Source: Octopus vulgaris
Taxonomy: Eukaryota
Length of the DNA stretch: 64,000 nucleotides
Reading direction: 5' to 3'
Assembly: GCA_951406725.2 (NCBI GenBank)
Contig: OX597823.1
Span: 6,262,001 to 6,326,000, forward strand
Shown here: positions 21,810 through 63,927 of the stretch, piece by piece
Layout of the letters: the number at the start of each line of letters is the position of its first letter
How positions within the stretch are numbered: the first letter of the stretch is position 1
Position numbers and translations under genes: made by a program
The notes under the pieces: generated by a model
Told to the model about the DNA's origin: nothing
What the model saw: only the letters and a program-made list of their open reading frames with translations
Database searches by the model: none

Positions 21810-23275
<1,466 letters not shown>

Positions 23276-32630: not shown

Positions 32631-32785
32631 AACTTATGTCAGCTATGGGCTCTAAAAGTTTTTGTGCATCTTGATGCTGACATAAGTTCCTTGTTTCCTT
32701 GTTTTATTATTATTTTATATATATTATATATATTATATATTATTTTATAATATATATCCTGATGAGAAGGCGGCATAATGCAGCC

Positions 32786-32925
<140 letters not shown>

Positions 32926-32934
32926 TATATACAT

Positions 32935-32979
<45 letters not shown>

Positions 32980-33009
32980 CATACATACATACATATATAT
33001 ATATATATA

Positions 33010-39176: not shown

Positions 39177-39208
39177 ACAACAACAAAAGTAGTAATAGTA
39201 GCCGCAAC

Positions 39209-39254
<46 letters not shown>

Positions 39255-40113: not shown

Positions 40114-40186
<73 letters not shown>

Positions 40187-40477
40187 CGTGTTATCATTAT
40201 TGTTTTAACGTATTTTTGTATTTTTATTCGTGTAACATCGTCCGTTTTCCGTCCTTGTTTTGTATACATTCGAGGCTTTCTTCCAAGGAATCTAAAGCAC
40301 TTGGCTTAGATTTTCCTTTGGGGCTGGCCAGATCGGACCGATCTCAAGATTAATCAGCCGAAATTGCGAAGATGATTCGGTTCTTGACTGAAGATTGAAG
40401 GCTTCGAATGCCCCGTCCGTGTTTTTTGTATCGTCTTCTAAATGTTTTGCGTTCCTGTCCCAATTTGTATTTTTTTT

Positions 40478-40530
<53 letters not shown>

Positions 40531-40632
40531 GGGAGAGTTTACGAAAAAAACAAAAGACGAAGACAGGTTGTGACACAGAAAAAACAAGGAGAGAAAAAGA
40601 TGTGTGTAGTGGCTAACGATCTATCATGGCGA

Positions 40633-40686
<54 letters not shown>

Positions 40687-40690
<4 letters not shown>

Positions 40691-41080
40691 CGAGGGCGCG
40701 GCTGAGTGGTAAGAAACTTGCTTCAACAACATGGATTCCGGGTTCAGTCCCACTGAATGGCACTTATACTTCAGCCTCAGACCGACGGAACTCTTGTGAG
40801 TGGACTTGTTAGAAGGAAACTGCAAGAAGCCCGTAGTATACACGCGCGCATGTGTGTGTGTATGTATTCGTGTCTGTGTTTGTCCCTCACACCATTTGGC
40901 AACTGGTGTTGGTGACGTTACGTCTCCATTGCTTAGCGGTTCAGCAAAAGAGACCGATAGAGTAAGTACCAGGCTTTAAAAGAAAAACAAGTACCGGTGT
41001 CAATTCGTTCGACTGGAATTCTTCAAGATGGTGCCCCAGCATGACCGCTGCCAAAGGACTAAAACAAATAGAAGGAAAAG
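40687..41080 (+). mobile_element. SINE family A
   Basis: Head, internal (TG)n and ggtgccccagcatgacc tail. Confidence 0.8.
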
Positions 41081-41674
41081 GATATATATCTGGGGGTGAG
41101 ATATTATGGAAGCATTGCACAAATATAAAGATTTTTGATTTTGTGATTAGGCACAAGGCCAGCAGTTTTAAGAAATGATGGGGGTCACTCGATTACATCA
41201 ACTCCTGTACTTGACCAGGAAGTGGAGTGAAAGGTGAAGTTGATCTTGGCAGAATTCGAATTCAGAATATCAATAGCTGTAACAAATGCCGCCATGCATT
41301 TTGCCAAACACTCTAAAACCTATCTATCGTTGATATTTCAATGAACTGATATCATTTATGAAGGAAACGGAATGAAATTTGTTTAAACAAGAAAATTGCA
41401 GCAAGGCTGCGTGATAGAGGTGTGAGAGGTGGCATGCAGACCATCAGGTAACGTGTTTGTATTCTTCTCTTCCGTTCGCGCTTCGATGGTTGTAAGAAAA
41501 AGCATTCGAAGCCTACGTGAAACTATCGCGCCGTGGGCGGTAAATTGTAACTTGCCAGTTGCAGCTGAACGTCCTCTCCCGGCAGGTCGCGGTTTAATGA
41601 GGACATAACTCCTATTACGTTTTACGGTCGTTTAAATTTTGATTTCGGCAGCACTAACAAAATTATGCTACCTC

Positions 41675-42502
41675 TGGGAAAGGTATTCAGTGGACATTGA
41701 TGAACAAGCTGGAGGACTTGGACTACGCAGATGACCTCGCACTACTGTCATATCGCCTGCAAGGCATGCAAGATAAGGTAGACCACCTGACTGAAACTTC
41801 ACTGCGAGTGGGCTTGAGGATCAGCCGGGAAAAGACAAAAGTGCTACATATCAACAACAAGCAGGAAGAACCAATCACAATCGAGGGGGAACCTGTGGAA
41901 GAAGTTAGTGAGTTTGTCTATCTTGGCAGCAAGATCAGCAAATCAGGTGGATCAGACGAGGACATCACGGCAAGAAGCAAGAAGGCTTGGCAAGCCTTCA
42001 TTATTCTTCGGCCGGTATGGAAGTCCACTGCCATCTCAACTCGAACTAAACTCCGCTTATTTAGTCCAAACGTAAAATCTGTGCTTTTGTATGGCTCTGA
42101 AACATGGAGAGCCACCTACAGCAACTACAAGAAGATCAAGACCTTCATCAACAAATGTCTCCGGCAGATCCTCCATCTGAAGTGGTTCGACAGAGTGCCA
42201 AACACCGACCTGTTGGAAAGGGCCAACCAGGAGCCTATACATGTTCTGATTAGACGAAGGAAATGGAGATGGATCGGATACACACTACGGAAAGAACCCT
42301 CAAATGTGACAAGTACTTGACTGGAACCCGCAGGAGAAAAGGAAGAGAGGACGCCCGAAGCAGACATGGAAGCGGAGCATTTTGGACGAATTCAGGACCA
42401 CCGGCCTGGCATGGGAAGCAGCCAAGAAACACGCCAATGACCGCAAAAAGTGGAAAACAACTGTTGAGGCCCTATGCTCCACAAGGCGAAAAAAAAAAAA
42501 AA
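41675..42502 (+). mobile_element. 5'-truncated RTE-clade LINE (second family) with A-rich tail
   Basis: [60 protein letters not shown]; frameshift near 42310; A-run at 42489-42502. Confidence 0.9.
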
Positions 42503-42684
42503 GGATTAAGAAGAGAAAATTTTAAATGGATTAACGATCCGTGAGCTTTTGACGCATCATTTCATCTCGCGTTCTTTCTTTATCTATTTATTTATTTGAT
42601 AGAAGAGGATTCATTGTAGATATTTTCTTTTCTCCGTATCTTTTAATGCCTCTAGTATATGGGAAAAGGTCTTTGGTGGTAAAA

Positions 42685-42905
42685 TACGAGGAGGTGCTAA
42701 AAAGTTCCTGCCTTTGGGTACAAAAAAGTACAGGAGGATCAGGTAATTATGATTTTATTCAACATATTCCCCTCTCAGGTTCACACACCTGTTGCAGCAG
42801 TCCTTCAGCTTCGCTAAGCCCTGTAAAAGAACTCGGAAGGCTGGGCCTCCAACCAGGCCTTTCCCAATACCCTTAAAACCAAGAACTTTTCAGTACCTCC
42901 TCGTA
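42685..42905. mobile_element. Mariner-derived MITE with TIRs and TA target duplication
   Basis: TAcgaggaggtgctaaaaagttc ... gaacttttcagtacctcctcgTA. Confidence 0.85.
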
Positions 42906-42990
42906 TTTTAGAAACAATATGAAAATAAATATAAGCCGAAACATTTTGCAAAATTAATTATTTCCGATGTTTCAATGAACAAACTCTAAA

Positions 42991-43240
42991 GTGAAGGCAT
43001 GAGGCCGAGTGATTAGGCTGTTGTACTCATGATCGCAGGATTGTGGTTTCGATTCCCGGACCGAGCTACGCGTTGTATTCTTGAGGAAAACACTTCATTT
43101 CACTCCAGTTCACTCAGCTGCAAATGAATATCTCTGCGACAAACTGGCGTCCCCTTTCAGAGAGAATGTTGTGGTCTCGGTCACATATACACCCATGACA
43201 ACAGAGTGACCGGCTCCATGAGTCCTTGGACTCGGGACGG
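42991..43240 (+). mobile_element. SINE family B
   Basis: gtgaaggcatgaggccgagtgattagg...ggtttcgattcccggaccg...ccagttcactcagctg. Confidence 0.75.
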
Positions 43241-43726
43241 TAATTTCCAGGGGATGATGATGGTGATGATGATGATGATGATGAATAAATGAATGAACAA
43301 ACTCTTGTCTTGAAGCAAAAAAAAAAAAAAACTGCATGGAATAAATTTGAAATAAAAATTATTGGAAATTCATATGAAAATGTATTACAGCGATTGAGAA
43401 AACTGAATCGTATTACTTGAGATTCGATAGCTCTTTGCTTCATAAGTAAAATCCGTTAAAAATCGGTGTAAGTTTGCATGGAAACATAACGCTGCGTGAG
43501 GAAACTAAATTGTACCGACTGAGGTTAGAGAGTTCTCTGCACGAGGCGACATATTTGTGAAAACGGCAGACGACAGATTTCAATGTTTCCTCCATAACGA
43601 TATGTTTTGATGCGAACTCGCAACGATTTTTATTATAACATTTTTTTAACAACATTATCAATAACGACAGCAGCTGAAGCAACTTCCTTGGAATAATCTG
43701 AACTCAATAATTTGAAGAAAGAAACA

Positions 43727-44155
43727 AAAGGCGGTGAGATGGAGGAATTGTTAGTACGCTGGGCAAAATGCTTAGCGGCATTTCGTTCGTCTTTACGTTC
43801 TGAGTTCAAATTCCGCCGAGGCCAACTTTGCCTTTTATCCATTCTGGATCGATAAAATAAGTAGCTATTTCTTTAAACAAGGACAGACATAGGTATTAAG
43901 TCGATTATATCGACCCCAGTGCGTAACTGGTACTTATTTAATCGACCCCGAAAGGATGAAAGGCAAAGTCGGCCTCGGCAGAATTTGAACTCAGAACGTA
44001 ACGGCAGACGAATTACGGCTACGCATTTCGCCCGGCATGCTAACGTTTCTGCCAGCTCGATAAAATAAGTACCAGTTGAACACTGGGGTCGATGTAATCT
44101 ACTTATCCTCCCCACTTGAAATTGCTGGCCTTATACCAAAATTTGAAACCAATAT
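43727..44155. mobile_element. SINE family C (+) interrupted by an antisense family C copy (43864-44057) with ~15-bp TSD tcgataaaataagta
   Basis: TSD at ~43849-43863 and ~44057-44072; the host SINE continues after the insert. Confidence 0.8.
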
Positions 44156-45069
44156 TAGAAGGAAGACAGTTGTTCACTGCATGAAATACGAAGCGGCATT
44201 TCTTAAGCCGTTTGCATAAGCATCTGATCAGTGAAGTGAAGTTTTCTTTCGTGCGATAATAAAAGAAAAGCGGTCTCATATTTAAGTGTATTCATGCAAA
44301 CGAAACAAAATTCTCAATTCTGTTTTGATAAGAAGCAATAGTGATTTCATATATCGACCCGGAAAGGATGAAAGGCAAAGTCGACCTAGGCGGAAATTGA
44401 ACTCAGAACGTGAAGACAGACAAAGAACTGCTAAGCATTTCGCCCGACGTGCTAACGTTTCTGCCAGCTCGCCGCCTTATTGAAGACTTCAAGTGTTGGC
44501 AGGATTCCGTAGATATGCAAAGAGAAAATCCAGTTTATAATCATAGATCCAATTCACGAGTGGTTTGTTGGTGTGGCGTCGGTGTAGGAAGTAAATGTCA
44601 AATAGCGCTTAAAAGGCCACAATTTTCTAGAATAGGCGGGTATAGTCGATACTATTGTACCTATTGTTTGACTAATACTTGACTTATCGATCCTCGAAGA
44701 GTGAAAGCCACAGTTTGGTGGTCGTGTTGTAAACAAGTTCGTTTTGTTGCTACGTTGGTTTGCGAAGTTACTTCTACAATAGCCACGGACCGACCAATGT
44801 TACCTTGGTGAATTTGGTGGATGGAAACTGTGGGGAAGCCCATCGTATACTCTCACACACACACACACACGCAAATACGTTGCTCTGCGATCATTTCGAC
44901 ACCTGACACATGGTACCAAATGCACTTGTACAGACAGCATCGATTTGATGGCGGGAATGAGCTTATGTGCATCACGAACCAAATCATTTGTACAGGTTGT
45001 TCGGCAAAAAGATGAACGCTCATACGTTGTCTTCGACAGGAAAGTCCATCATCATCCAACGCATCATAT

Positions 45070-45712
45070 ATATATATATCACGTGATCACATGACCGACC
45101 CGATGTTGTTACACATCGCTGGTTATAATGCGCTTTTGCCACTGGCTAGGTGAGCTGACCAACATTTTCCCCTGATCGAAGAGTGACTGGATCAAAGTGA
45201 AATGAAGTGTTTTGCTCAAGAATACAATGCGCCGTCCAGTCAGGGATTCGAACCCGCGATCTGGCGATCGTAAGAGCAACATCCTAACCACTAGGCATTG
45301 CGCACGCACATACACTAACGCACGTACGCACATACACACACACATATATATATATGAGGGGGGACAATCAATTAGCTCGACCCATTACGCAACTGGTACT
45401 TAATTTATCGATCTCGGAAGGATGAAAGGCACAGTCGACCGCGGCTGAATTTGAACTCAGAACGTAACAGCAGACGAAATACCTATTTCTTTACTACCCA
45501 CTTGGGGCTAAACACAGAGGGGACAAACAAGACAGACAAACGGATTAAGTCGATTATATATACCCCAGTGCGTAACTGGTACTTAATTTATCGACCCCGA
45601 AAGGATGAGAGGCAAAGTCGACCTCGGCGGAATTTGAACTCAGAACGTAACGGCAGACGAAATATCACAAGGCCTTTCGCCCGGCGTGCTAACGATTCTG
45701 CCAGCTCGCCAC
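45070..45712 (-). mobile_element. SINE B (45070-45305) plus two tandem/nested SINE C copies (45365-45712)
   Basis: Homology to the other copies. Confidence 0.8.
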
Positions 45713-45837
45713 ATACTAAAATATCATAACGATGTATTAGTTGGTTGGTTAATTCCTCTATGTATGACTGGTGCTTCTCTAGCTGAGGGACAGATGGGCG
45801 ATATAAAACCCGGCGTGGTTAAATAGAACATGGGGAA

Positions 45838-46189
45838 GATGACGATGATAACGATGATGACGAAGACAAAGATGTGGACGAAGCGATGATGATGATGATG
45901 ATGATAATGACGACGACGACGACGACAACGACAACGATGATGATGAAGGTGGTAATTTCGATGATTGATGACGATGAAGATGGCGACTATGATGACGTTA
46001 ATGATGACATCGATGACGATGACGATAACGACGACGATGACGATGACGATGATGACGATGCAGATAATGACGACAACGATGATGATGGTGATCAAGATGA
46101 TGATGATGATCAAGATGAAGCTGACGATAGTGATAACAACGATGATAATGCTGCTGCTGCTGCTGCTGTTGATGATGAGGAGGAAGAGG

Positions 46190-46242
<53 letters not shown>

Positions 46243-46312
46243 GATGATGAGGAGGAGGAGGAGGAGGAGGAGGAGGAGAGTTGAAAGATGAAAGATGAAA
46301 GATGAAAGATGA
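45838..46312. repeat. Compound (GAT/GAC/GAG/GCT)n trinucleotide tract followed by (GATGAAA)n
   Basis: Direct inspection. Confidence 0.9.
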
Positions 46313-46736
46313 AAGAAAGGAAAAGAGCGGGTGAAAATAGTAACAATGTTCCAGAGAGAGTCTGGTTGACGGGATGCTGAGGGAGGGAGGGAGGGGAGAG
46401 GGGGAACGGGGGAGGGAGACAAAGAGAGATCATTGTTTACGTAAATTGAAACAATATTTTTTGTAGTATTGCAAGTAACGGCGATTCCCCCCATCCACCC
46501 TCTCCGTTTTACAAAACAATTTACAGTCACACACATCGCCATACGCACACACACACACACGCACACACATATATGTATTTATGAATGTTCGTACGTACAC
46601 ACACACACACATATGTATTTATATATTTTTTACTTGTTTCAGTCTGCGGCCATGCTAGGGCACCGCCTTAAAGAATTATTTTAGTCGAATGAATCGACCC
46701 TAGTGCTTATATATTAAGCCTGGTACTTATTCTATT

Positions 46737-47075
46737 GTGAAGGTGCATGGCCCAGTGGTTAGAGCGTCGAGCTTATGATCGTGAGGTTGTGAGTTCGAAT
46801 CCCGGACCGGGCTGGTGTTGTGTTCTTGAGCAAGACACTTTATTTCACGTTGCTCCAGTTCACTCAGATGTAGAAATAAGTTGCGACGTCACGAGTGCCA
46901 AGCTGTATCGGCCCCTTTGCCTTTCCCTTGGATAACACTGGTGGCGTGGAGAGGGGAGGCTGGTATGCATGGGCGACTGCTGGTCCTCCATAAACAACCT
47001 TTGCCCGGACTTGTGCCTGAGAAGGTAAGTTTCTAGGCGCAATCCCATGGTCAATCATGACCGAAGGGGGTCTCA
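46737..47075 (+). mobile_element. Full-length SINE family B nested in a minus-strand SINE A (46628-46736 + 47080-47180)
   Basis: A/B boxes tggcccagtggttagagc / gagttcgaatccc; acttattctat is present on both sides, consistent with a TSD. Confidence 0.85.
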
Positions 47076-47464
47076 ACTCAACTTATTCTATCAGCCTCTT
47101 TCGTCGAACCTTTAAGTTACGGGGACGTAAACACACCAACACCCGCTTCAAGGGGTGGTGGGGGACAAACACAGTCACAAACACACCCGTGCACACACGC
47201 GCGCACACACACACACTCACACACTCACACATACACACACGCAAAACGCACTCACATATATATGGATTGTATATTATGATGTAATTTTTTAAAGATTACA
47301 TTAAGCAAAACCCCACCGAAACAGCCGTCGCGAATTTTAAACGCTATATGACATTTACTTCTTACACCGACGCCATACCAACAAACCACTCATGATCTAT
47401 GATTATAAACTGGATTTTCTCTTTGCATATCTACGGAATCCTGCCAACAATTGAAGTCATCAAT

Positions 47465-47900
47465 AAGGCGGCGAGCTGACAGAAACGTTAGCACGCCGGG
47501 CGAAATGCTTAGCAGTACTTTGTCTGTCTTCACGTTCTGAGTTCAATTTCCGCCTAGGTCGACTTTGCCTTTCATCCTTTCCGGGTCGATAAATTAAGTA
47601 CCTATTTTTTTACTACCCACAAGGGGCTAAACACAGAGAGGACAAACAAGGACAGACAAACGGATTAAGTCGATGATATCGACCCCAGTGCGTAACTGGT
47701 ACTTATTTATTCGACCCCGAAAGGATGAAAGGCAAAGTCGACCATGGCGGAATTTGAACTCACAACGTAACGGCAGACGAAATACTGCTTAGCATTTCGC
47801 CCGACGTGCTAACGTTTCTGCCAGCTCGCCGCCTAGGGTCGATCTAATCGACTGCCCCCCTCCCCGAAAATTACGGGCCTTGTGCCAAGAGTAGAAGAGA
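47465..47900. mobile_element. SINE C (+) joined to an antisense SINE C (47600-47834): inverted dimer
   Basis: Junction aagtacctattttttttactacccac. Confidence 0.8.
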
Positions 47901-48718
47901 ATATTGTTTATTTCACTGTGAGTTTTATGCTAGAACTCGCAGTTCTGGTTGATGTGCAATTACTATTTGATGTGCCATTTCTGGTTGATGTGCCATTTCT
48001 GGTTGATGTGCCTTGATTCTTAAGAAACCTTATAACGGAATTATATAGTTGCAGACCTACTCATATGGTAAAAAGCTTGCTTCCCAACCATATGGTTCCG
48101 GTTTCCAGTCCCACTGCGTGTCACCTTGGGCAAGTATCTTCTACGATAACCTTGGCCCACGCAGAGTCTTGTGAGTGGATTTGGTGGATGGAAACTGAAA
48201 GAAGCTCATCTTATATAGGAGGCTGCATGAGAATCGAGAAGATCGGGAAGAGAATGAGGGAGGGAAACGGAGGGACGAGGCAAAAGAAGGCAGAAAATGA
48301 GGAGGATGGAGAGAGGGGAGGATGGAAAGAGGGGAGGATGTGTGTAGGAGGAGGAGGAAGAGAGTAACAAAGAGAGGCTGTGAGCGGTTGTAGATATAGT
48401 TAACATGTAACAGATGTGTGTGTGTGTGTGAGTGGATGACTCAAGAAAATAAACGTTCCTTTGGATTTTGTCAAGTTTATAAACATCCCAACACCTTCCA
48501 CCACTGCTACCCACCATTATCCCCCCTCCCCCACCGTCATAGCCACAACGTTTCCCCACCCCCACCACCACGACCATTATTACTACTATCACTAGTTTTG
48601 ATTATGGTGACGACGATATGGTTTGTTTTATAGGTAGGAGACGAGTTAGCTGGAAACTGGCAGAGGATTCAGAATGGGAAACAGATGTACCATATACACA
48701 CATACCTATGTATACATA

Positions 48719-48786
<68 letters not shown>

Positions 48787-48895
48787 TGTATATACACACA
48801 CACATATATATATAAATATATATATATATATAAATATACACATATATATATACACATATATACGCATATATATACATATATATACATATATATAC

Positions 48896-48926
<31 letters not shown>

Positions 48927-49052
48927 CATTATGTATATACATCTACATATACATACATATATATACATTTATGTATATACATCTATATGTACATATATAC
49001 ATATATATATATACACATACAAATATATATATGTATATATATGCATGCATGC

Positions 49053-49130
<78 letters not shown>

Positions 49131-49333
49131 AAACAACACCAGAGACAAACAGACAAAAGCAAATCCATCTAATTAAGACACAAGTGTATTTGGAAAGGGG
49201 GGAGGTAGCATGTGCTACTTAACGCAGTTTAACATTGTTGTTGTTATTGCGGTTGTTGCTATTGTTGTTGTTGTTGCTGCTGTTATTATTATTATTATTG
49301 TTATTATTATTATTATTGTTATTATTATTATTA

Positions 49334-49495
<162 letters not shown>

Positions 49496-49506
49496 TTAAT
49501 ATTATT

Positions 49507-51385
49507 CAGTAGTTTTATTTTTATAGCGTGCTTTCACTTCACTACCGAGCGCAGCTCTGTGTGCCTTGGGTATGTGCTGTGATTTGTTGTGATGCTCTGA
49601 TGGTTATTGTATGGAAAGTGTTCTGCGTAGGATGTGTGCAGTGCCTAGTAGCGCAATTTTCTGTATGCTATATGTGTTTGTAAGTCCTGGTGCTTTTGTT
49701 ATGTATTTGTCTGAATATGTTTTTATCATGCCTAATGCACCTACTATGATTGGAATTGTTTCTGTTTTTAGATTCCACATTCTAGTTACCTCTATTTCCA
49801 GGTCTTTGTATTTTGAAAGTTTCTCTATTTCTTTTAGAGACACGTTGTCATCTGCTGGTATTGATATATCAATTAGAAAGCATTTTTTTCTTCAATATCT
49901 CTGACAACTATATCTGGTCTGTTGGCCTTAATTTCTCTATCTGTGTGTATCGGCATATCCCAGAGTATGGTTGCTTTCTCGTTTTCTGTGACCTTTTCTG
50001 GTGTGTGCCTATACCATCTTTTTTCTGTTGTTATTCCATAATGTTGGCATAGCTTCCAGTGTATGTAGGTCCCAACTCTGTCATGTCTGTGAATATATTC
50101 CTTCTTAGCCAGGACTGGGCAGCTAGAGATAATATGATTTATTGTTTCTTGTCCATCTCCACATATTCTGCAGTTACTTGTAATATTTCTTTTCATTACA
50201 TGTTTTTGGTAATTTCTGGTGGGGAGGCTTTGGTCTTGTGCTGCAATTAAAAATCCCTCTGTTTCTGCTTTGAGTCCTGAGCTTCTCAACCATTGCTGGG
50301 ATTTTTCTTTGTCTATTTCTTTTGCGTTTAGTTTAGTCCAGTATTTACCATGAAGGGGCTTTTCTTGCCATCGTTTTATCATGGTTCGTTGTTGTTCTAT
50401 TTTTAGTTTGGATTTCATTTGTTTTATAGCTTTTGTTGTTTCTTCATCTTCTTCTTCTTCTTCTTCTTCTTCTTCTTCTTCTTCTTCTTCTTCTTCTTCT
50501 TCTTCTTCTTCTTCTTCTTCTTCTTCTTCTTCTTCTTCTTCTTCTTTTATGTTTATTAGGTGGTATGATTTCTTGTTTGTATTTGTCAGCTTCCTTAAAT
50601 ACTGAGAACAGTTTTTTGTTTTGCTCGTGTTTTGCCGCTATCTGGATCAGTTTTCCTTCCTTCTGAAGTAGATATTTTTGCAGTCCTATGGTGGTTATTT
50701 TATAGTAGTTTTCCAGCTGTATAAGGCCTCTACCACCTTCTATACGTTGTATATATAGTCTTTCTATGTCAGATTTTGGGTGATGCATCCTAGATCCTGT
50801 CATTATTTTTTTTGTTTTCCTATCTATTTTGGTCAGTTCATTTCGTGTCCAGTTAAGGATATTGTAGCTGTAACTTATAACTGGGACAGCTAAAGTGTTA
50901 ATACCTATTATCTTATTTTTAGCATTGAACTCTGTTTTTAGTGTTGATCTAACTCGTCTATAATATTCTTTTTTTATTTTCTCTTTCATTTGTGTGTGTT
51001 GTGTCTTATCTAGTTCATGGATTCCTAAGTATTTGTAAGTTTGGCTTTGGTCTAATTCTTTTATTTCATTGGTTTTATCTAGTGTGATGTTGCTACTCTT
51101 AACTAGTTTTCCTCTTTTCAGGGTTACTTTGGCGCATTTTTCTAATCCAAATTTCATATCTATTTCTTTGGTAAATCCATGAACTGTCTTTAATAGTGTT
51201 TCCAGCTGTTTGTCATTTGCAGCGTATAGTTTTAGGTCATCCATATATAAAAGGTGGCTGATCGTTTTGCCGTAACATTTATATCTGCATCCAGTTCTAT
51301 TTAGCATATCAGATAGAGGTGACAGTGCCAAGCAGAAAAGGAGTGGAGAGAGCGTGTCTCCCTGGAATATTCCTCTTCTAATGGG
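49507..51385 (-). mobile_element. 5'-truncated R4/Dong-type non-LTR retrotransposon (RT + CCHC + restriction-like endonuclease) ending in (TAA)n
   Basis: IRRGIFQGDTLSPLLF, YMDDLKLYA, GGRGL, CRICGDGQETINHIISSC, RHDRV, NRPDIVV, KLSKYKDL. Frameshifts near 50548 and 49885; (TTA)n on plus 49282-49506. Confidence 0.92.
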
Positions 51386-51557
51386 GAATAACAAACAACG
51401 TGAACTTGTTTGACGCTCGGAAAAAAATGGAAGTATCTTTGATGTTTCGAGCCGACGCTCTTCTATGGAAAGGACCGAGGAGAGAAAACAGATGAAGAGA
51501 GGAAAAAAGCGGAAAGTCAAAAAACCGTGTCTAGATTAACGGTTGTACATGTTCAAT

Positions 51558-51599
<42 letters not shown>

Positions 51600-51644
51600 G
51601 CACACACACTCACACACACACACTCACACACATGCACAAGCATG

Positions 51645-52250
51645 ACTGTGTTCTGTTTTTCACTGATCTTTAGCTTTATGTTAACATCCGCTGGGCAGCT
51701 AACTTCCACAACTTTGCAGTTTCTCTTCTCTATCTCGAATCATTATATCAGGCCTGTTGTGCTTACATTTTATTGAGGTCTTCACTGGTACATTCCACCA
51801 GTATTCCTTCTTATTATGAGTGGCTATGGCTTTTACCATATTGTGGGTTTTCATTTCTTTGTCCTCGGGATTATCCTGCCGTCGGATTTCATTATAGAGT
51901 TCCTAGCTACAATGTCACGTCTCATCGGTAGATAATACCATGATGACATTTTCGGACAACTGCTTATGATGTGGGTGATATCTTCAGTGTGAACTCCACA
52001 GTCTGCTTCGGTTGTCAAGTTTTACGGCTTTTCCTGCATCTCTATCCCTTTTGTGCATCAGGTACTTGGTTGATATTTCCTGTTCCTGGATTGCAAACGC
52101 ATGCCCTCCAAAGTGAGAGGTAGTAATCCGGCTATTCGTCCATGATAAACTGCTTTGGTGATCGATGTCACTATCATCACAGAGATTTCTACTACCAGAT
52201 CCATGCATAGTTTTCTGCTCATATAGGATCATCCTTTCATCTGATGATAT
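51645..52250 (-). pseudogene. Degraded RLE-type LINE of a different family (zinc knuckle/endonuclease region)
   Basis: Minus fragments FAIQEQEISTKYL...RL..VHTEDITHIISSCPKM...WWNVPVKT...HNRPDIMI...VEVSCPADVNI. Confidence 0.75.
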
Positions 52251-52261
52251 GTTATGTAAGT

Positions 52262-52402
52262 AAGGCAACAAGCTGGCAGAAACGTTAGCACGCCGGGCGA
52301 AATGCTTAGCGGTATTTCGTCTGCCGCTACGTTCTGAGTTCAAATTCCGCTGAGGTTGACTTTGCCTTTCATCCTTTCGGGGTCGATTAAAATAAGTACC
52401 AG
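52262..52402 (+). mobile_element. SINE family C, 3'-truncated
   Basis: Consensus head and core; stops at aagtaccag. Confidence 0.85.
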
Positions 52403-52733
52403 TTTATTGTAGTAAATTCGACTTCCAGCTGTTTCCAGTAGTCATTATAGGCTGGTTTACTCAATCAGCCCATTGATTAGTTGAGAAGAATTGAACGACC
52501 TAAAAAGATTAATGCTACTTTCGTCAGTCATTTCGGGTTAGAACCAAACAGAACACTGAAGGAACGGTACAGGTATTTGGTGTTCTGCTTGATTCTAACT
52601 TGAAATGTATCTGACGAAAGTTGCATTAATTTTCTAGGTCGTTCAATTCTTTTCAACTGATTGAGTAAACTTATCCATAACCGACCTATAATGACGACTG
52701 GAAACAACTGGAATTCGAATTTACTACAATAAA
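52403..52733. mobile_element. ~330-bp imperfect foldback/palindromic element (MITE-like)
   Basis: Arms tttattgtagtaaattcga.ttccag.tgtttccagt.gtcattatagg...gaattgaacgaccta...cagaacac and their reverse complement; short loop near 52558-52579. Confidence 0.8.
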
Positions 52734-53011
52734 GATAAATATGTAATGGCTATTATTTATGCCTTGTCTTGTATACTTGTATATCACTCTGTAAAAGCCA
52801 GTATAACTGGAACACAACCATGGATTTACAATACAGAATGGTGATGAAGTAACACCACGGATCCTGCCACAAGATTATGCGAGATTCTTCACTAATCTAA
52901 ACAATATTGTTAGCATGGTGTTCTAGCAGAGAGATTATAAAGTATTTTGCCCAGTTTGATAATCCCTCACTAATAACTCTGTTATGTATGTGTGTATGTG
53001 TGTGTGCGTGC

Positions 53012-53069
<58 letters not shown>

Positions 53070-53075
<6 letters not shown>

Positions 53076-53217
53076 TAAAAAGCTTACCTCCCAACCACAT
53101 GGTTCCGGGTTAAGTCCCACTGCGTGGCACCTTGGGCAAGTGTCTTCTACTATAGCTTCGGGCTGACTAAAGTCTTGTGAGTGGATTTTGGTAGGCGGAA
53201 ACTGAAGAAAGCTCATC

Positions 53218-53285
<68 letters not shown>

Positions 53286-53516
53286 AGATAGATAGATAGG
53301 TAGATATTTCTGTGTGTCTTTGTTCGTCCCTTCCCACCTCTTGACAAACGATGTTGGTGTGTTTACGTCACCGTATTGTAACGGTTCAGCAAAAGAGACC
53401 GATAGAATAAGTATCAGGTTTAAAAAGGTTAGTCGTAGGGTCGATTTGTTCGACTAAGAACCCTTTAAGGTGGCACCCAGCATGGCCGCAGTCAAATGAC
53501 TGAAGCAAGTAAAAGA
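53070..53516 (+). mobile_element. SINE family A with internal (TA)n(GA)n(GATA)n
   Basis: Homology to 967-1412. Confidence 0.85.
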
Positions 53517-54174
53517 TTTTAAAAAATAAAGGAAATTCATGGACAGAAACATGGATGCGAGTTGGCAGACTGGCAAGAGTGTCGGGAAAAGAATGCCATA
53601 AAGAACTTTATCTGGCTCTTGACTGAGTTGAAATACGACCGGGATCAAATTCGTCTTTCCTCTTTCGAAGTCGATAGAATAAAGTACCAGCTATGTACTG
53701 TGCTCACATTCAGCGTTGCTGATCTTGTACCTGAATCAGAATTATTGAATCTAAATATAGCCTAAAGCAACGTGCTGGCAGAATCGCTACAGCGTCGGAG
53801 AAAATACCTTGCGTGTTTCTTCCGGCTCTTTAAGTTCTGAGTTCAAATTCTTCCGAGGTCAACTTTGCCTTTCATCTTTATGGGTTCGATAGATTGAAGA
53901 TTCAGCGAAGTACTGGGGTTGATTTTATCGTTTAATGCTCTCCCCTAAAAAATTACTAGCCCTTTACCTAAACCAGAAACAGTTATGAAAGCCTATGCCT
54001 CGGACCTTCTCAAGGACGAAGAAGACTATTAACGTGTCGTGGTATTTACCTTTAAACCAGATTACACTTGAACCTGAAAATAAAACAGATGAAAGAGAAT
54101 ATAGGCTGCATGTCAAATTGCGAGAAGTAACAGCCAGATATGCTTCACACATTTAAAAGAAAGACTCTTTAGAT

Positions 54175-55078
54175 CAAGGGTTCTCAACCATTTTTATCTA
54201 GGGACCCCTTTGATTACCAAATATTCTGGTGAACCTCTCATAGCCATTCAATGTTTAAAAACTAGTTTTATAGAAACTTCTTTCAAAATTCCCATTTTGC
54301 TATTCACACAGGAACTTGTGTCGGTTGAACTATGTAAAATGCTAGAGAAAGAAACCTAGCTGCTTCTTGCAATGTTTGTTCTTTCTCGAGCCACCCCTGG
54401 CTCATTAGGGCCGGTTTCCCGGTTTCCTTGGCGTATAGGTTCCCCACCTGGACGGGACGCCGGTCCGTCGCCGGTGAGCTGCAAGATGCAGAAGGAAGGA
54501 GTAACAGAAAGTTGTGGCGAAAGAGTCAGCAGAAGTTCGCCAATACCTTCTTTCGGAGCCGCGTGGTGCTCAGGTGTTTCGCTCATAAACACACACATCG
54601 CCCGGTCTGAGATTCGAGCCCGCGATCCCTCGATCGCGAGTCCACTGCTCTAACCACTTGGCCATGTGCCTTCACTAATAAATGTTCCTTCTCGAGCCAT
54701 GCCAGGCTCATAAGGGTCGGTTTCCCGGTTTCAGTGGCGTAGAAATTCCCCACCTGGGCGGGACGCCAGTTCACCGCAGGATTACTCATTTTTGCCAGCC
54801 GAGTGGTGAAATGAAGTGTTTTGCTCAAGAACACAACGCATCGCCCGATCCAGGATCGAACCCACAACCTTACGATCATGAGTTCAATACCTTAACCACT
54901 AAGCCATGTGCCTCCACGTTTCTTGCAATACATACCAATATATACATCTAAAACAAAATTTGTTCAGGAGCCCTTCAAATGCAATTGTGGATCGCCAATT
55001 TACTATTTTGTTGCGTGGACCCATAAAAATCTTCTTTGGACCCTCAGGGACAATATGGACCACGGTTGAGAACTACTG
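54175..55078. mobile_element. hAT (Charlie-like) MITE with 8-bp TSD ctttagat, carrying two nested minus-strand family B SINEs (54370-54672, 54683-54916)
   Basis: TIRs caagggttctcaacc / ggttgagaactactg; identical 8-mers at 54167-54174 and 55079-55086. Confidence 0.88.
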
Positions 55079-55634
55079 CTTTAGATAATTCTGTCCTACA
55101 TACCCCAAAACAAAGGTTAAAGCCACGAACAGTTGTGTAGCATGGCTAACTACGCCCGGGGAAATGTAAGAATAGGGGATAGGGCAAAGGGCATGTTATA
55201 CTTCAGCTATTATTATTTCTTTTTAAATGTTACGACCCCAAAGATTCTGCATCGAGAGCAACCACCGATATGGCAATGTTCAGGCCACGTCACTGACCAG
55301 CAAAGGGAAGGCGTTTAACGAAAGGTCTCTTCCGGTAGCTTTCACCTAGGGTTAAACAACAAAAACAGTGATCGTTCCTTCAGAGTTTCGTCTACTTCTA
55401 TCAACAGACAAAGAATGAAAGCAAAAGTCGAGATCGAAAGAGTTTCCACTCAGAACAGAGCGCCGTAACAAATGTCGCTAGGGTATTTTGACGGAGGTGC
55501 TAAGGGTTCTGCCAGAAGGGGACAAAATTTATGAATCATCAAATAAAACGCAAAATTTTTTTTTCCTAATTTTATATTCCACAAGACAGCTTAGACCTCA
55601 ATTTCTTTCAGATGCAAATGTTGAAAGTAATTTT

Positions 55635-58600
55635 TTAGTATAAACTAATAAAAAATTGTGTGTCTATGGCGTAGAATTCGGCCCAGTAGTGATTTGTTTT
55701 CGCTATTTGTCCTTCAGCTTTCGCTTCTTCACTAGCGTCACATTCAGACATTTCTTCTTCATTTTCATTCACTCCTTCACTTCTTCGTTCGTCGGCTTTC
55801 TCTTCTTCTTTTCCGTCACCTTCAGTCTCTTCTTCTTCATTTTCATTCACTCCTCCACTTTTTCGTTCGTCGGCTTTCTCTTCTTCTTTTCCGTCACCTT
55901 CAGTCTCTTCTTCTTCATTTTCATTCACTCCTTCACTTCTTCGTTCGTCGGCTTTCTCTTCTTCTTTTCCGTCACCTTCAGTCTCTTCTTCTTCATTTTC
56001 ATTCACTCCTTCACTTCTTCGTTCGTCGGCTTTCTCTTCTTTTTTCCGTCACCTTCAGTCTCTTCTTCTTCATTTTCATTCACTCCTTCACTTCTTCGTT
56101 CGTCGGCTTTCTCTTCTTCTTTTCCGTCACCTTCAGTCTCTTCTTCTTCATTTTCATTCACTCCTTCACTTCTTCGTTCGTCGGCTTTCTCTTCTTTTTT
56201 CCGTCACCTTCAGTCTCTTCTTCTTCATTTTCATTCACTCCTTCACTTCTTCGTTCGTCGGCTTTCTCTTCTTCTTTTCCGTCACCTTCAGTCTCTTCTT
56301 CTTCATTTTCATTCACTCCTTCACTTCTTCGTTCGTCGGCTTTCTCTTCTTCTTTTCCGTCACCTTCAGTCTCTTCTTCTTCATTTTCATTCACTCCTTC
56401 ACTTCTTCGTTCGTCGGCTTTCTCTTCTTCTTTTCCGTCACCTTCAGTCTCTTCTTCTTCATTTTCATTCACTCCTTCACTTCTTCGTTCGTCGGCTTTC
56501 TCTTCTTCTTTTCCGTCACCTTCAGTCTCTTCTTCTTCATTTTCATTCACTCCTTCACTTCTTCGTTCGTCGGCTTTCTCTTCTTCTTTTCCGTCACCTT
56601 CAGTCTCTTCTTCTTCATTTTCATTCACTCCTTCACTTCTTCGTTCGTCGGCTTTCTCTTCTTCTTTTCCGTCACCTTCAGTCTCTTCTTCTTCATTTTC
56701 ATTCACTCCTTCACTTCTTCGTTCGTCGGCTTTCTCTTCTTCTTTTCCGTCACCTTCAGTCTCTTCTTCTTCATTTTCATTCACTCCTTCACTTCTTCGT
56801 TCGTCGGCTTTCTCTTCTTCTTTTCCGTCACCTTCAGTCTCTTCTTCTTCATTTTCATTCACTCCTTCACTTCTTCGTTCGTCGGCTTTCTCTTCTTCTT
56901 TTCCGTCACCTTCAGTCTCTTCTTCTTCATTTTCATTCACTCCTTCACTTTTCGTTCGTCGGCTTTCTCTTCTTCTTTTCCGTCACCTTCAGTCTCTTCT
57001 TCTTCATTTTCATTCACTCCTTCACTTCTTCGTTCGTCGGCTTTCTCTTCTTCTTTTCCGTCACCTTCAGTCTCTTCTTCTTCATTTTCATTCACTCCTT
57101 CACTTTTCGTTCGTCGGCTTTCTCTTCTTCTTTTCCGTCACCTTCAGTCTCTTCTTCTTCATTTTCATTCACTCCTTCACTTCTTCGTTCGTCGGCTTTC
57201 TCTTCTTCTTTTCCGTCACCTTCAGTCTCTTCTTCTTCATTTTCATTCACTCCTTCACTTCTTCGTTCGTCGGCTTTCTCTTCTTCTTTTCCGTCACCTT
57301 CAGTCTCTTCTTCTTCATTTTCATTCACTCCTTCACTTCTTCGTTCGTCGGCTTTCTCTTCTTCTTTTCCGTCACCTTCAGTCTCTTCTTCTTCATTTTC
57401 ATTCACTCCTTCACTTTTTCGTTCGTCGGCTTTCTCTTCTTCTTTTCCGTCACCTTCAGTCTCTTCTTCTTCATTTTCATTCACTCCTTCACTTCTTCGT
57501 TCGTCGGCTTTCTCTTCTTCTTTTCCGTCACCTTCAGTCTCTTCTTCTTCATTTTCATTCACTCCTTCACTTTTTCGTTCGTCGGCTTTCTCTTCTTCTT
57601 TTCCGTCACCTTCAGTCTCTTCTTCTTCATTTTCATTCACTCCTTCACTTTTCGTTCGTCGGCTTCTTCTTCTTTCCGTCACCTTCAGTCTCTTCTTCTT
57701 CATTTTCATTCACTCCTTCACTTCTTCGTTCGTCGGCTTTCTCTTCTTCTTTTCCGTCACCTTCAGTCTCTTCTTCTTCATTTTCATTCACTCCTTCACT
57801 TTTTCGTTCGTCGGCTTTCTCTTCTTCTTTTCCGTCACCTTCAGTCTCTTCTTCTTCATTTTCATTCACTCCTTCACTTCTTCGTTCGTCGGCTTTCTCT
57901 TCTTCTTTTCCGTCACCTTCAGTCTCTTCTTCTTCATTTTCATTCACTCCTTCACTTTTTCGTTCGTCGGCTTTCTCTTCTTCTTTTCCGTCACCTTCAG
58001 TCTCTTCTTCTTCATTTTCATTCACTCCTTCACTTTTTCGTTCGTCGGCTTTCTCTTCTTCTTTTCCGTCACCTTCAGTCTCTTCTTCTTCATTTTCATT
58101 CACTCCTTCACTTCTTCGTTCGTCGGCTTTCTCTTCTTCTTTTCCGTCACCTTCAGTCTCTTCTTCTTCATTTTCATTCATTCCTTCACTTTTTCGTTCG
58201 TCGGCTTTCTCTTCTTCTTTTCCGTCACCTTCAGTCTCTTCTTCTTCATTTTCATTCACTCCTTCACTTCTTCGTTCGTCGGCTTTCTCTTCTTCTTTTC
58301 CGTCACCTTCAGTCTCTTCTTCTTCATTTTCATTCACTCCTTCACTTTTTCGTTCGTCGGCTTTCTCTTCTTCTTTTCCGTCACCTTCAGTCTCTTCTTC
58401 TTCATTTTCATTCACTCCTTCACTTCTTCGTTCGTCGGCTTTCTCTTCTTCTTTTCCGTCACCTTCAGTCTCTTCTTCTTCATTTTCATTCACTCCTTCA
58501 CTTTTTCGTTCGTCGGCTTTCTCTTCTTCTTTTCCGTCACCTTCAGTCTCTTCTTCTTCATTTTCATTCACTCCTTCACTTCTTCGTTCGTCGGCTTTCT

Positions 58601-59164
58601 CTTCTTCTTTTCCGTCACCTTCAGTCTCTTCTTCTTCATTTTCATTCACTCCTTCACTTTTTCGTTCGTCGGCTTTCTCTTCTTCTTTTCCGTCACCTTC
58701 AGTCTCTTCTTCTTCATTTTCATTCACTCCTTCACTTCTTCGTTCGTCGGCTTTCTCTTCTTCTTTTCCGTCACCTTCAGTCTCTTCTTCTTCATTTTCA
58801 TTCACTCCTTCACTTCTTCGTTCGTCGGCTTTCTCTTCTTCTTTTCCGTCACCTTCAGTCTCTTCTTCTTCATTTTCATTCACTCCTTCACTTCTTCGTT
58901 CGTCGGCTTTCTCTTCTTCTTTTCCGTCACCTTCAGTCTCTTCTTCTTCATTTTCATTCACTCCTTCACTTCTTCGATCGTTGGTTGTCTCTTCTTCACT
59001 AGCGTCACCTTCCGTCTTTTCTTCTTCATTTTCGTTCAATGAACGCTTTCTTTTATACTTTGGTGATTCCTCTGCTTCACTTCCTTCCTCGGTTTTCGCT
59101 TCTTCACTTATCTTGTTTGTATCATTCGCAACACCATTTTTTGTCTTTTTGTCTGATTTACATT
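55635..59164 (-). CDS. Putative terminal exon of a host gene encoding a very acidic protein with ~42 tandem 26-aa repeats (NENEEEETEGDGKEEEKADE-RR/RK-SEGV); a few 1-bp frameshifts inside the array
   Basis: Minus-strand acceptor tcttacAG (plus 59165-59166). A unique in-frame lead-in (xCKSDKKTKNGVANDTNKISEEAKTEEGSEAEESPKYKRKRSL) runs into the array. First and last repeats are diverged but keep frame. The unique tail EEEMSECDASEEAKAEGQIAKTNHYWAEFYAIDTQFFISLY ends in TAA at 55635-55637. Unit length is a multiple of 3. Upstream exons not identified. Confidence 0.7.
55745..59040 (-). repeat. 78-bp coding minisatellite, ~42 copies
   Basis: Plus-strand unit ttcattcactccttcacttcttcgttcgtcggctttctcttcttcttttccgtcaccttcagtctcttcttcttcatt repeats almost invariantly; two variants (cacttctt = RR, cacttttt = RK). 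Confidence 0.97.
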
Positions 59165-59196
59165 CTGTAAGATATTATTAACATAATGTATAGAGA

Positions 59197-59228
<32 letters not shown>

Positions 59229-59248
59229 TAGATAGATAGATAGATAGG

Positions 59249-59325
<77 letters not shown>

Positions 59326-59348
59326 CGATAGATAGATAGATAGATTAG

Positions 59349-59384
<36 letters not shown>

Positions 59385-59455
59385 TAGGATAGATAGATAG
59401 ATAGATTAGGATAGATAGATGGATAGATAGATAGATAGATAGATAGATATATTAG

Positions 59456-59526
<71 letters not shown>

Positions 59527-59574
59527 GGATGTATATATGGATGGATGGATGGATGGATTGATAGATAGATAGAT

Positions 59575-60651
59575 AAGTTTCTTTATTGGCCACACAGGGC
59601 TGCACACAGATAGGACAAGTTACAAGGTAGAGCTTTTCTTTTGGGGGAGAAAAAAAAAGGGGCGTAGGTTTTCCATCAAAAGGGATCGTAAAAGGAAAAA
59701 AAGAACAAAAAAAGAAGAAAAGAAAAAAAGGAAAAGAAAAAAAGAAAAAAGGGGAAAAAAGAAGAGAAAAAGAAAAAAAGAAGAAAAAAGAGGAAAAAGG
59801 GGGAGAGGAAAAAAACGATCAATAGGGATCGTGTATCACAGTGTCATGATGTATTGTGTAAAGGGGAAAGCAACTAAGGTTTATCCGTGGGAAGAAAAGC
59901 CTACGAAAAAGACCACGGTAACCTCGGTCAATATTGTTATATGTTACCACATTTGTTTGCAAGTGGGTAACCCTCTGTTTTCAATTTCTGGGTTCATAGG
60001 ATTATGCTCAAGGTGGCTTCGTCATTCATACGTGCCATCCTTGCTACATTCACCCATCTTTTTTTAAAACATTCGCTAGACAAAACTTGCCTCTCTACTC
60101 TCACTTTCCTTTTCAAGTGGTACTTGAAGAAGTTGATGAGAGATTGACCAGAGAGGAAAGTGTTTGTCTCCAATCCTTTCAGACGCGTCCACCAGATACA
60201 TTCTTTCGCCATAGCCACAAGGATGATGAAAATAACTCTTCCTTCCCGTTTGAAGGAAGGAGGCGTGACACTATTGACGATAGACTCAGCTGATAAACCG
60301 ACTCGTCCCACACGTGACAGCAGTTGTTCGACATAAGCCCACAGGTCGGAAATTGTTGGACACTGCACGAGTGCGTGCAGAACGGTTTCGTCGCTATGAC
60401 CGCATCTCGGGCAGGTCGGCCCCTTGTTTCTCGAGCCGTGTCTGTAGAGCTTATCCCGAACGGATAGCGCTTCTCGGTAGCACTGCCAGGCCAGGGATCT
60501 CTGGAAGTTGTCCATGGGCCCTGGCCCGAAAGTCGTCCCGAACAGGCGGGTCAGGTATTCCTCGTCGACGTCCAGGTTCGCCCCGAGCTCGTCGTCGTAC
60601 CTCCCCTCCACTAATCCCCTATAGAATGCTTTGGTTGTGTTGAAGTCACTC

Positions 60652-60654
<3 letters not shown>
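59575..60654 (-). mobile_element. Second 5'-truncated copy of the Tx1/L1-clade LINE, flanked by (GATA)n on both sides
   Basis: ORF 59994-60653 is nearly identical in protein to 13550-14208; same terminal gtgtgcagccctgtgtggc.aataaagaaac. Confidence 0.88.
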
Positions 60655-60739
<85 letters not shown>

Positions 60740-61856
60740 CCGACGGACGGATGAATGGACAGACGGGCGGACGGACGGATGGTTGGATGGATAGATAGAT
60801 TATTGAAGGATTGGTTCATTAATCGATTTACAATCAGAGAGACAGACGTTGTAACAATTCACTAGTTATTGAAACTGTCGTAACTGGTTGGTAAATGTAA
60901 TACCGCCTTCTTTATTCTTTTCACTGTTTTATTTTATACTAGGAAACTGGCCCCTAGGGGGTCACTATGACTTGAGAAGGCAATTTTACTGTTACCTTGT
61001 TCTAATCATTCACCAAAGAAACATTACAATATTGATTGCTCAATTAGAAGATCATGATTACACATACCACTGGCCCGTTCAGTCCACATAATATCAAATG
61101 TACAGCATTACATATATCTATTATAGAAAGATGGAGAAAAGTTCTAACATTGCCAGTAGGATTTGAGTTCAGAGTTCAAACCCAACAGAGGTAGACTTGA
61201 ACATTACCTTTTATTATGGTTGATGAGCTAAACACCAGGTAATGTATTGGGGAAATGAACAATGTCATGACTATTTCCTTCCTTAATGACTTTGTAAATT
61301 GACCAATAAATATTTGGAGCAAAATCTAGTAACATTTTCTCTCGGTGACATATGGCACTTCAAAAAACATATTGGCTGTTTTTGAAAAGAAACAAAATGA
61401 TTTAGGCATTAATTGATAGTCATCTCTCTGTAATGTTGGGCCACAGAGGATAAATGTGGCTTCAGCTTCAACCCTTCATTTGGATTAAATTTCACTGACG
61501 CTTTCTGTTTCTACAGGATGGGATTATAAAGCAAAATTACAATTCAAAAGTCATCTAGAAGTTGAAATTCTCGTTATGTTTATTGAAAGAGCGAAATACA
61601 TATTTTACATTCGATATCAAATCACTATAATTAGTTTTCTATATGTTGTCTTCAAGCAAGATAAAAAGAACACAACTCCATCATATAATTATTCAGAAAA
61701 AATTATTCTGCTTTATTTTTAGCCATGAATCTTCTGTGAATAATTAAACATGTATAATTAAACACATACATGCAGCTTTTAAGCAATAGCCTACGTCCCA
61801 CGAACGTTGGTTTTAGTCTAGTACAAGTAATAAGCGACGTTTTATTTTATGATAGA

Positions 61857-62248
61857 CTAGCATTATCGCCCGGCGTTGCTCGGGTTTGTTGCGACCCTTT
61901 AGAATTGGAATTTTTGAAAAGTAAAAATTTTGCATCATGTAGCTTGTTATTCTCTTTAAGTGAACATTTTTCTGGTTGAAATACACCGAAAAATGGCGAC
62001 ACGGCAGTCAAAAAATCGTAAAAAATGGGGATTTTCATAGAAAAAATGCACCATTTTGATGTAAATAATTTTTGGTGTTAACATGGTACGATTTGAATTT
62101 TTTCTTCTACGGAAGGAAGAGCAAGCCTTCTTTTATCATACTCTCAATTTTGGTCAACTTGCGCCGCAGGGTCTCGGAGGAGATAGTGTTAGTTGAAGGC
62201 TACCAAACCTGCCATACACAGACAACTTCATCTATATATATAGAAAGA
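61857..62248 (-). mobile_element. Complete 392-bp non-autonomous Helitron (family H2)
   Basis: Minus strand A|TCtttctatatatatag ... cccgagcaacgccggg hairpin ... CTAG|T; inserted at AT with no TSD. Confidence 0.85.
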
Positions 62249-62550
62249 TTTATTCCTAAAAAAATAAAAATCTTTACGAACAAGGGAAGCAACTTATTTA
62301 ATAGCAAATTCTTGTTGCTGCCCTTGCTTCTTGTTGTGTAAAGGAGTTATCATCCTTTGCAGTTGTAGCCGTGTGAGATATTTTATATAAAGAAAATCTC
62401 ATTGCTACCGACTGAACTAAATTCTTTATTACACAAAAACAAGTAACGATGCGGACGGGTGGGTGGGTTGTCGACTTTATAAAGACTTTATAAATTGAAT
62501 ATGCAATATAGCCATTTACATTTAACGCTTAGAAGAAGGGATATACTCAC

Positions 62551-62584
62551 CGTAAATTGCAGCTTGCAAATCAATCTATCAAGC
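62551..62584 (-). CDS. Candidate 34-nt micro-exon (only open frame reads LDRLICKLQFT) or 5'UTR exon
   Basis: Minus strand reads ttttctcAG|gcttgat...tttacg|GTGAGTAT: good acceptor and near-perfect donor in unique sequence. Its phase does not join directly to the 59164 exon. Confidence 0.3.
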
Positions 62585-62771
62585 CTGAGAAAATATCTCC
62601 AAAATACGATTCGATTTATACATCAAGAATTTTATGTAAACCTTTACTACAGGGTGGTCAACTAATGGAACAGCATTTCTAATAATTGCTGTACACCGCT
62701 TACCATATTTCAGACAGCTTGCCAGAAATATGTCCGGCTAAAACTCGTGTTTGGTGAACATATTTAATATA

Positions 62772-63034
62772 TTTGTTTGTTCCTTCTCGAGCCACGCTTG
62801 GCTCGTTAGCGCCGACTTCCCGGTTTCCTTGGCGTATAGGTTCCCCACCAGGTGCACTGCAAAATGCAGGAAAGAGCGAAAGAGTCAGCAGAAGTTCGCC
62901 ATTACCTTCTGCCTGAGTCGCGTGGAGCTTAGGTGTTTCGCTCGTAAACACACACATCGCCCGGTCTGAGATTCGAACCCGCGATCCCTCGACCGCGAAT
63001 CCGCTGCTTTAACCACTAGGCCATGTGCCTCCAC
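62772..63034 (-). mobile_element. SINE family B
   Basis: Similar to 54370-54672; head gtggaggcacatggcctagtggttaaagc...gggttcgaatctc. Confidence 0.85.
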
Positions 63035-63446
63035 ATTTAATATACTTATTTAGAGATTAATATAGAATAATGGGATCTTTTCTGCTTGGCTGTAAATATT
63101 CAATCGCTTCAATTTCTATTCGAATTGATTTCATATTCAGTGTAATGATATACTTTTATATGCTAATCAATGTCATGAAAATCATTTTCGCCATAAATCA
63201 ATAAATAAAGAGTTATTGGCTATTAAAGTTTGAAAATTTTGAGTAATTTTGGCAGCCAAACAGAAAAGATCCGAATAATGTGATGGTAAATCAAATTTAG
63301 TATTGTCTTAATGTTACAGCGCATGCTGTTTCCAAAAGCTGATGCGCTGACCGTACACAATAGGCGCAACTGAAGTCAGGTATAACAGCATGCATGTTAT
63401 CTGCACAATTTCATGATTAAACAATGGATTGTGAATTCATATGAAT

Positions 63447-63688
63447 CCGAGGTGGTGTCAAAAAATTCCCGCACTAGTTATCTTTAATACAAAAGTTCTA
63501 ACATCATCACCTTCGAAATAGTCACTACGCGCAGCAACACACCGGCCCCAGCGTTCCTGTCACTTTCGGAATCCAGCCTTGAAGTCGTTTTCCATAAGCA
63601 AGTCGAGGACTTTCTGCGCTTCGCTCTGGATCTTGACAAAAGTGTTCAGACGGTGACCTTTGAGCTGCCTTTCATCTTGGAGAAGAGA
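63447..63688 (-). mobile_element. Mariner 3' fragment
   Basis: Minus translation LFSKMK..LKGHRLNT..KIQ...RWGRCVAARSDYFEGD plus TIR-like cgaggtggtgtcaaaaaattccc. Confidence 0.8.
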
Positions 63689-63927
63689 TGGAAAAACGAC
63701 CAACTGAGACTATGATTAATAGCCAACCGTCTCATTCTCTAGTCGCGTGTCCATCATACCAGAACTGTGATCTGAATGCAGAGAAGAAGTGGCTCGACCT
63801 GGAGAGAGCCCCTGATCTCCAAGCTACGCGTCATGTCGAGGAACGTTACTCTGGAGACCCTTCGGAGGAACCCCATTTCGGCCGCTTGTATTCGCGATCG
63901 TATTCTTTTTATTTTTTTAGGAATAAA

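Follow-up and report, generated by a model that had tools for sequence, protein, structure and literature searches.

A minus-strand acidic repeat exon of Octopus vulgaris, probably a partial duplicate of the last exon of a predicted secreted-precursor gene

The acidic array of the window

The window is a 64,000-nucleotide stretch of Octopus vulgaris DNA (contig OX597823.1, positions 6,262,001 to 6,326,000), and its minus strand carries an exon that runs from position 59164 to 55635. The initial annotation had placed a splice acceptor directly ahead of this exon, a KRKR site in its lead-in and about 42 acidic 24-mers separated by dibasic sites behind it, and we found all three. The acceptor (…TTACAG) lies at 59165..59181 with 59164 as the first exon base, KRKR followed by Ser lies at 59043..59054, and 42 basic pairs are carried in 78-bp units. 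The lead-in (58962..59164) begins in phase 1 and comprises 66 codons, KRKR included. It is followed by a homogenised array (55773..58961) of 41 anchor-to-anchor units of 26 amino acids and by a tail (55635..55772). Each unit consists of a 24-mer, in which 13 of the 24 residues are Asp or Glu, and a basic pair; its C-terminus is E-R-R/K and the Gly of an amidation signal is absent. A search of the window exon for Pfam families returned none.

The exon had been taken to be a single open one. However, 5 of the 41 units are short, and the frame from the acceptor ends at about 57645 within a stop-to-stop ORF of 509 aa, so that about 505 open codons are kept behind the intact acceptor. The first frame-breaking unit is 73 nt long (57641..57713) and the other four, starting at 57172, 57017, 56238 and 56083, are 77 nt long. 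All of the deletions fall within A or AG runs. The tail carries a 1-nt deletion relative to the paralogue on C10 that is described below, and the stop that had been assigned to 55635 is instead a TAG at 55645-55647 in the paralogue's frame; as assembled, a TAA near 55635 ends the tail. The window copy contains no in-frame stop made by substitution. Matching deletions are paired two units apart (57017/57172 and 56083/56238), and these identical pairs are due either to systematic errors in the consensus or to a genuine duplication of dimers.

Among the 42 basic pairs, 29 are RR|S and 10 are RK|S; the remaining three are RK sites hit by a deletion (a lost A). RR and RK are intermixed in the 5' half of the array and nearly all pairs in the 3' half are RR. 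This toggling between Arg and Lys had been read as a sign that the basic pair is kept. We consider it weak evidence of selection, because it is a single base change (one G/A difference, AGA/AAA) amplified with the array; of the 53 pair sites in the paralogue, one shows it. All 42 pairs stem from a single event by copying, and a cyclic 26-mer with four basic residues contains an adjacent basic pair by chance in 42% of cases. Since the pairs differ by one G/A change and could have arisen at this chance rate, the window array alone shows no selection for cleavage.

A related gene on C10

Both the lead-in and the tail had been described as unique. By contrast, a search of the assembly with the lead-in identified a second copy, 94% identical, at C10:97,144,771, and the tail has exactly two copies in the genome. 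The second copy belongs to an apparently intact gene on the plus strand (C10:97,141,909-97,149,944; L006:909-8944), here called the parent, that lies 91 million bases from the window copy. Three exons are predicted. Exon a (L006:909-971) contains an ATG and 20 hydrophobic, signal-like codons; exon b (L006:1872-1997) has 126 nt and encodes five Cys; and the last exon, exon c, is 5,138 nt long, closes with an in-frame stop and encodes an acidic array with 71 basic sites. The junctions have AG/GTAAGT ends and phases 1, 1-1 and 1, all of them compatible, and the coding length summed over the three exons is 1,774 codons. The acceptor of the last exon is identical in the two copies. The sixth Cys of the N-terminal module is contributed by this exon, and it is the first full codon of the window exon.

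The signal peptide was called by a heuristic based on hydrophobicity and the (-3,-1) positions: exon a has a hydrophobic core with a mean KD of 3.0 and V-x-G ahead of the predicted cut. A scan for an ATG, a hydrophobic core and a phase-1 donor returned one match in the 83.8 kb upstream of the parent, and this match was exon a. Exon a opens at an acceptor 2 nt 5' of its ATG, so a further 5' exon is expected; another coding exon 5' of exon a is possible.

The basic sites of exon c are 52 RR|S, 1 RK|S and 18 KRKR|S, the last present once in the window copy, and they are arranged in an 89-aa super-unit. The exon is open for 908 codons. Of the 82 Arg in this clean frame, 80 belong to RR|S or KRKR|S sites and the Lys are scattered, and none of its 40 basic sites is preceded by a Gly amidation signal. 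The invariance of the Arg is not special, however, since 16 of 26 columns of the unit are invariant among 28 units. Glu makes up 33% of the clean frame and Asp is at 9%, and 19 of 67 Ser are in an S-x-E context. Between exon nt 2702 and 4544 the array is garbled: of the 70 intervals between sites, 64 are divisible by three, including all those before nt 2702, and 6 are not.

Several comparisons bear on the nature of the Cys module. Exon b alone scored 14.2 bits (E=0.054) against the Pfam family SVWC (PF15430), below the cut-off of 27 bits, and a search of the genome with the SVWC profile gave seven sub-threshold matches, none of them on C10 and exon b not among them. The first Atlas matches for the module were beta-MSP and CirpT4, both at 0.76 and below threshold. 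With a single-sequence structural model (pLDDT 68), the best Foldseek match had a non-significant E=2.5, with FnI chains at ranks 1, 3, 5 and 8, and VIA gave Z=3.5 and an rmsd of 2.1 over 37 residues, level with unrelated rows. The SVWC, beta-MSP and CirpT hints converge, because CirpT has been tied to both VWC and beta-MSP (PMC6955305). Together these sequence and model comparisons are weak hints that the Cys exon may be SVWC/beta-microseminoprotein/FnI-like.

Searches for homologues of exon b, weak tests with so short a query, found none among proteins of 75-2000 aa by word search, none by HMMER over 1.84 billion representatives and none among PDB sequences. A 200-aa query from exon c, whose low complexity makes it a weak test, found none among 7,985 and 7,547 candidates scored and no usable match in the Atlas. 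A literature search found no matching description, and the parent gene is apparently undescribed; subscription journals lay mostly, and supplements wholly, outside this search, so an entry in a supplementary peptidome table is possible.

The duplicated block, its breakpoint and its reads

The window copy is part of a duplicated block of about 22 kb (39188..60938, minus strand) that is an inverted copy of C10:97,144,182-97,166,757. The long flank matches of this block are mostly 91-96% identical, with 3.6% substitutions in the 3' flank. From the parent gene, the window holds the third exon, its 3' flank and part of intron 2 only. The intron remnant (59181..60760, minus strand) is a TATC microsatellite in which the 3' part of a retroelement (zf-RVT) is embedded; the paralogue's intron lacks this fragment. 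Homology ends at 60938. Here parent intron 2 abuts an unrelated 3-kb segment (60938..63908, plus strand), the two overlapping by 1 nt. This segment has two other copies, one at C10:97,181,872-97,184,837 (94%, same orientation; 38 kb away from the parent exon) and one at C10:7,543,627-7,545,974 (97%). At the breakpoint, both partner sequences run on uninterrupted at their other loci, and the window junction is derived, since the other two segment copies continue differently.

The junction lies in gap-free sequence, and the nearest N gap (100 N, at 79138) is 18 kb past it and about 20 kb upstream of the window exon. Exons a and b each have a single match in the assembly, leaving the window copy with no front exons there. 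The same signal-exon scan over the 154.8 kb upstream of the window copy returned two matches, both past the scaffold gap, and no credible exon between breakpoint and gap. Both matches were set aside: one adjoins a retroelement-like ORF and the other is in simple-repeat DNA. We also consider a pure assembly artefact unlikely, given the 3.6% flank divergence, the private retroelement insertion and the gap-free junctions.

The surroundings of both copies are rich in repeats. The parent's 3' neighbourhood is a segmental-duplication hub (93-96%) with members at C10:97,169,447-97,184,837, 97,238,643-97,244,419 and 7,533,068-7,545,974. The zf-RVT retroelement 3' end has two copies in the window, each inside TATC microsatellite (13319-14788 and 59757-60654), and reverse-transcriptase-like retroelement fragments were noted by eye at 49593-51535, 25916-26896, 22487-23491, 32639-34393 and 41658-42320. 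Upstream of the junction there is a 3.1-kb array of a 23-bp minisatellite (window-equivalent 70420-73558; L016:6420-9558), and from the scaffold gap on, local duplications of 1-2.5 kb are clustered (window-equivalent 79240-123528; L017-L021).

Over 198 nt the two lead-ins differ at 12 positions; 10 of these substitutions are nonsynonymous and two synonymous, which gives a pN/pS of about 1.1 that rests on these 12 changes. The frameshifts of the window array could be taken as proof of a pseudogene, and we dropped this argument: the parent's array is likewise garbled, with comparable lesions, so that a live copy cannot be told from a dead one by its frameshifts. The similar lesions in the parent suggest that the assembly mis-calls these arrays, and the window deletions may be sequencing or assembly errors.

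Of 24 runs listed for a query that included microsatellite sequence, none is recorded as RNA. Four of them were aligned to the window; in these, 59096-59230 is uncovered and no splice joint was seen, which speaks neither for nor against splicing. Run X1 contains a 108-nt exact window-type piece with at least four mismatches from anywhere in the paralogue exon, as well as a parent-like piece that loops back over KRKR, and thus both array types are present in it. This run may be the assembly's own source. Runs X2 and X3 contain window-type units and leave the KRKR-bearing stretch 58988-59077 uncovered, such holes being uninformative. In run X3 we observed a Lys variant at 58940 (depth 112/294) that is absent from all window units, and the window array may differ between individuals.

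Predicted processing, known systems and rival readings

On balance, we read the window exon as probably derived from the last exon of a predicted secreted-precursor gene at C10:97.14 Mb, by a partial duplication that broke inside an intron and likely left it with no signal-peptide exon. The parent would be spliced and its product would enter the secretory pathway, where PC2/furin-type convertases would cut after KRKR|S and RR|S. These cuts would free an N-terminal module of about 80 aa with six Cys, VWC/beta-MSP-like and probably the specific binding part, together with about 70 short peptides, mostly of 22-24 aa and about 40% Asp/Glu. Taken in bulk, the acidic peptides would most likely form a matrix of granules or secretions that binds Ca2+ and screens charge, and would not serve as receptor ligands. 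The window copy, whose array has homogenised to one 78-bp unit, most likely would not be translated into a secreted product.

The strict furin motif is R-x-K/R-R, and KRKR|S does not match it because Lys stands at P4. RR with acidic P3/P4, and also RK, may be poor cleavage sites. PC1/3 and PC2 cleave C-terminal to dibasic pairs (PMC9070308). The initial proposal of a secreted multi-site precursor is upheld for the parent, where an N-terminal signal peptide is predicted by the heuristic, the exon phases are compatible, the Arg are concentrated in the sites and paired basic residues flank the products. It is not supported for the window copy: in the assembly its front exons, and with them an N-terminal signal peptide, are absent, and homology stops at the breakpoint.

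The parent has in common with the Aplysia ELH prohormone and with Sepia SP-alpha and SP-beta a signal peptide (predicted in the parent) and basic cleavage sites. In ELH a tetrabasic first cut sorts the products, and the parent's tetrabasic site could be cut first in the same way (PMC2119775). Sepia pheromone precursors are cut at dibasic sites and yield Cys-containing products, as the parent would, from about 250 aa compared with about 1,770 aa for the parent (PMC3484142). Unlike either system, the parent would give about 70 near-identical acidic products and has no amidation signal and no detected sequence similarity, and the window copy lacks a signal exon. The parent's predicted small, secreted, Cys-rich beta module resembles SVWC, beta-MSP and tick CirpT; beta-MSP has 10 Cys compared with the parent's six. 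Unlike in these proteins, the module is joined to an acidic array of great length, and the scores are all sub-threshold. CirpT has four bridges, compared with six Cys in the parent module (PMC6955305), and a squid beta-MSP (PF05825) is an egg-capsule pheromone (PMC4500399). By analogy, a pheromone role for the parent's products may serve as a lead only. Granins and the acidic spacer peptides of neuropeptide precursors are very acidic, have many dibasic sites and plausibly have a Ca2+-binding granule role. The parent resembles them in the first two respects and plausibly in the third; it differs in its strict tandem repeats, in the lack of any homology found and in that no bioactive, amidated peptide lies between the acidic ones. 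Segmental gene duplicates that are partial and truncated at the 5' end are DNA-level copies with intron and flank and a minimal-overlap rearranged junction. Save for the rapid re-homogenisation of its coding array, the window copy is an ordinary duplicate of this kind, and it is probably an ordinary dead fragment.

Other readings concern the parent product. It could be secreted and stay largely uncut, or be cut at KRKR only, as a long polyanionic protein that forms a matrix or binds mineral, with the window copy still an orphan. The high Glu and Asp content, the S-x-E contexts (S-x-E being a secretory kinase motif), the missing amidation Gly and the chance rate of basic pairs in such units are all consistent with this. 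However, the near confinement of Arg to sites before Ser, with Lys scattered, and the 18-fold occurrence of KRKR|S speak against it, and we regard this reading as rather unlikely. It is very improbable that the protein is nuclear or cytosolic, with a disordered acidic tail, a CDK site and an NLS, as the initial annotation had offered as an alternative: KYKRKR and KKNKRKR do resemble monopartite NLSs, but the signal-like exon and the Cys module lie upstream in phase and the parent has SQ in place of the SP motif. Two non-coding minisatellites that by chance look like exons would account for the failure to find a protein homologue, yet 908 open codons, unit lengths of 39, 72 and 78 and three exons with matching phases make this, too, highly improbable.

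The remaining readings concern the window copy. We consider it unlikely that it is a full, working paralogue or allele, its front exons having dropped out at an assembly gap, or that it is spliced to new upstream exons. The 100-N gap upstream, the intact acceptor, the lack of substitution-made stops and the window-type units in runs X1-X3, with the distinctive piece in X1, are what such a copy would show. However, 60938 is a clean rearrangement junction well short of the gap, no credible signal exon lies between the two, and the RNA nature of runs X1-X3 is a guess. Still less probable is a fuller version, in which an undescribed secreted octopus precursor would contain one signalling module of beta-MSP/VWC type alongside about 70 acidic peptides released by convertases, in a hypervariable array, and the window copy would be an expressed second version that frees a single peptide in 42 copies, such as a reproductive-gland pheromone in its own calcium-binding matrix.

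The parent, if processed, would be an unusually long peptide precursor with almost wholly acidic, non-amidated products. Its Cys module is hinted to be of the domain type that includes the squid contact pheromone, and its sequence gives exact peptide masses to seek in octopus gland peptidomes. The two copies show a coding array rebuilt from the 89-aa super-unit to the 26-aa unit within about 4% flank divergence.
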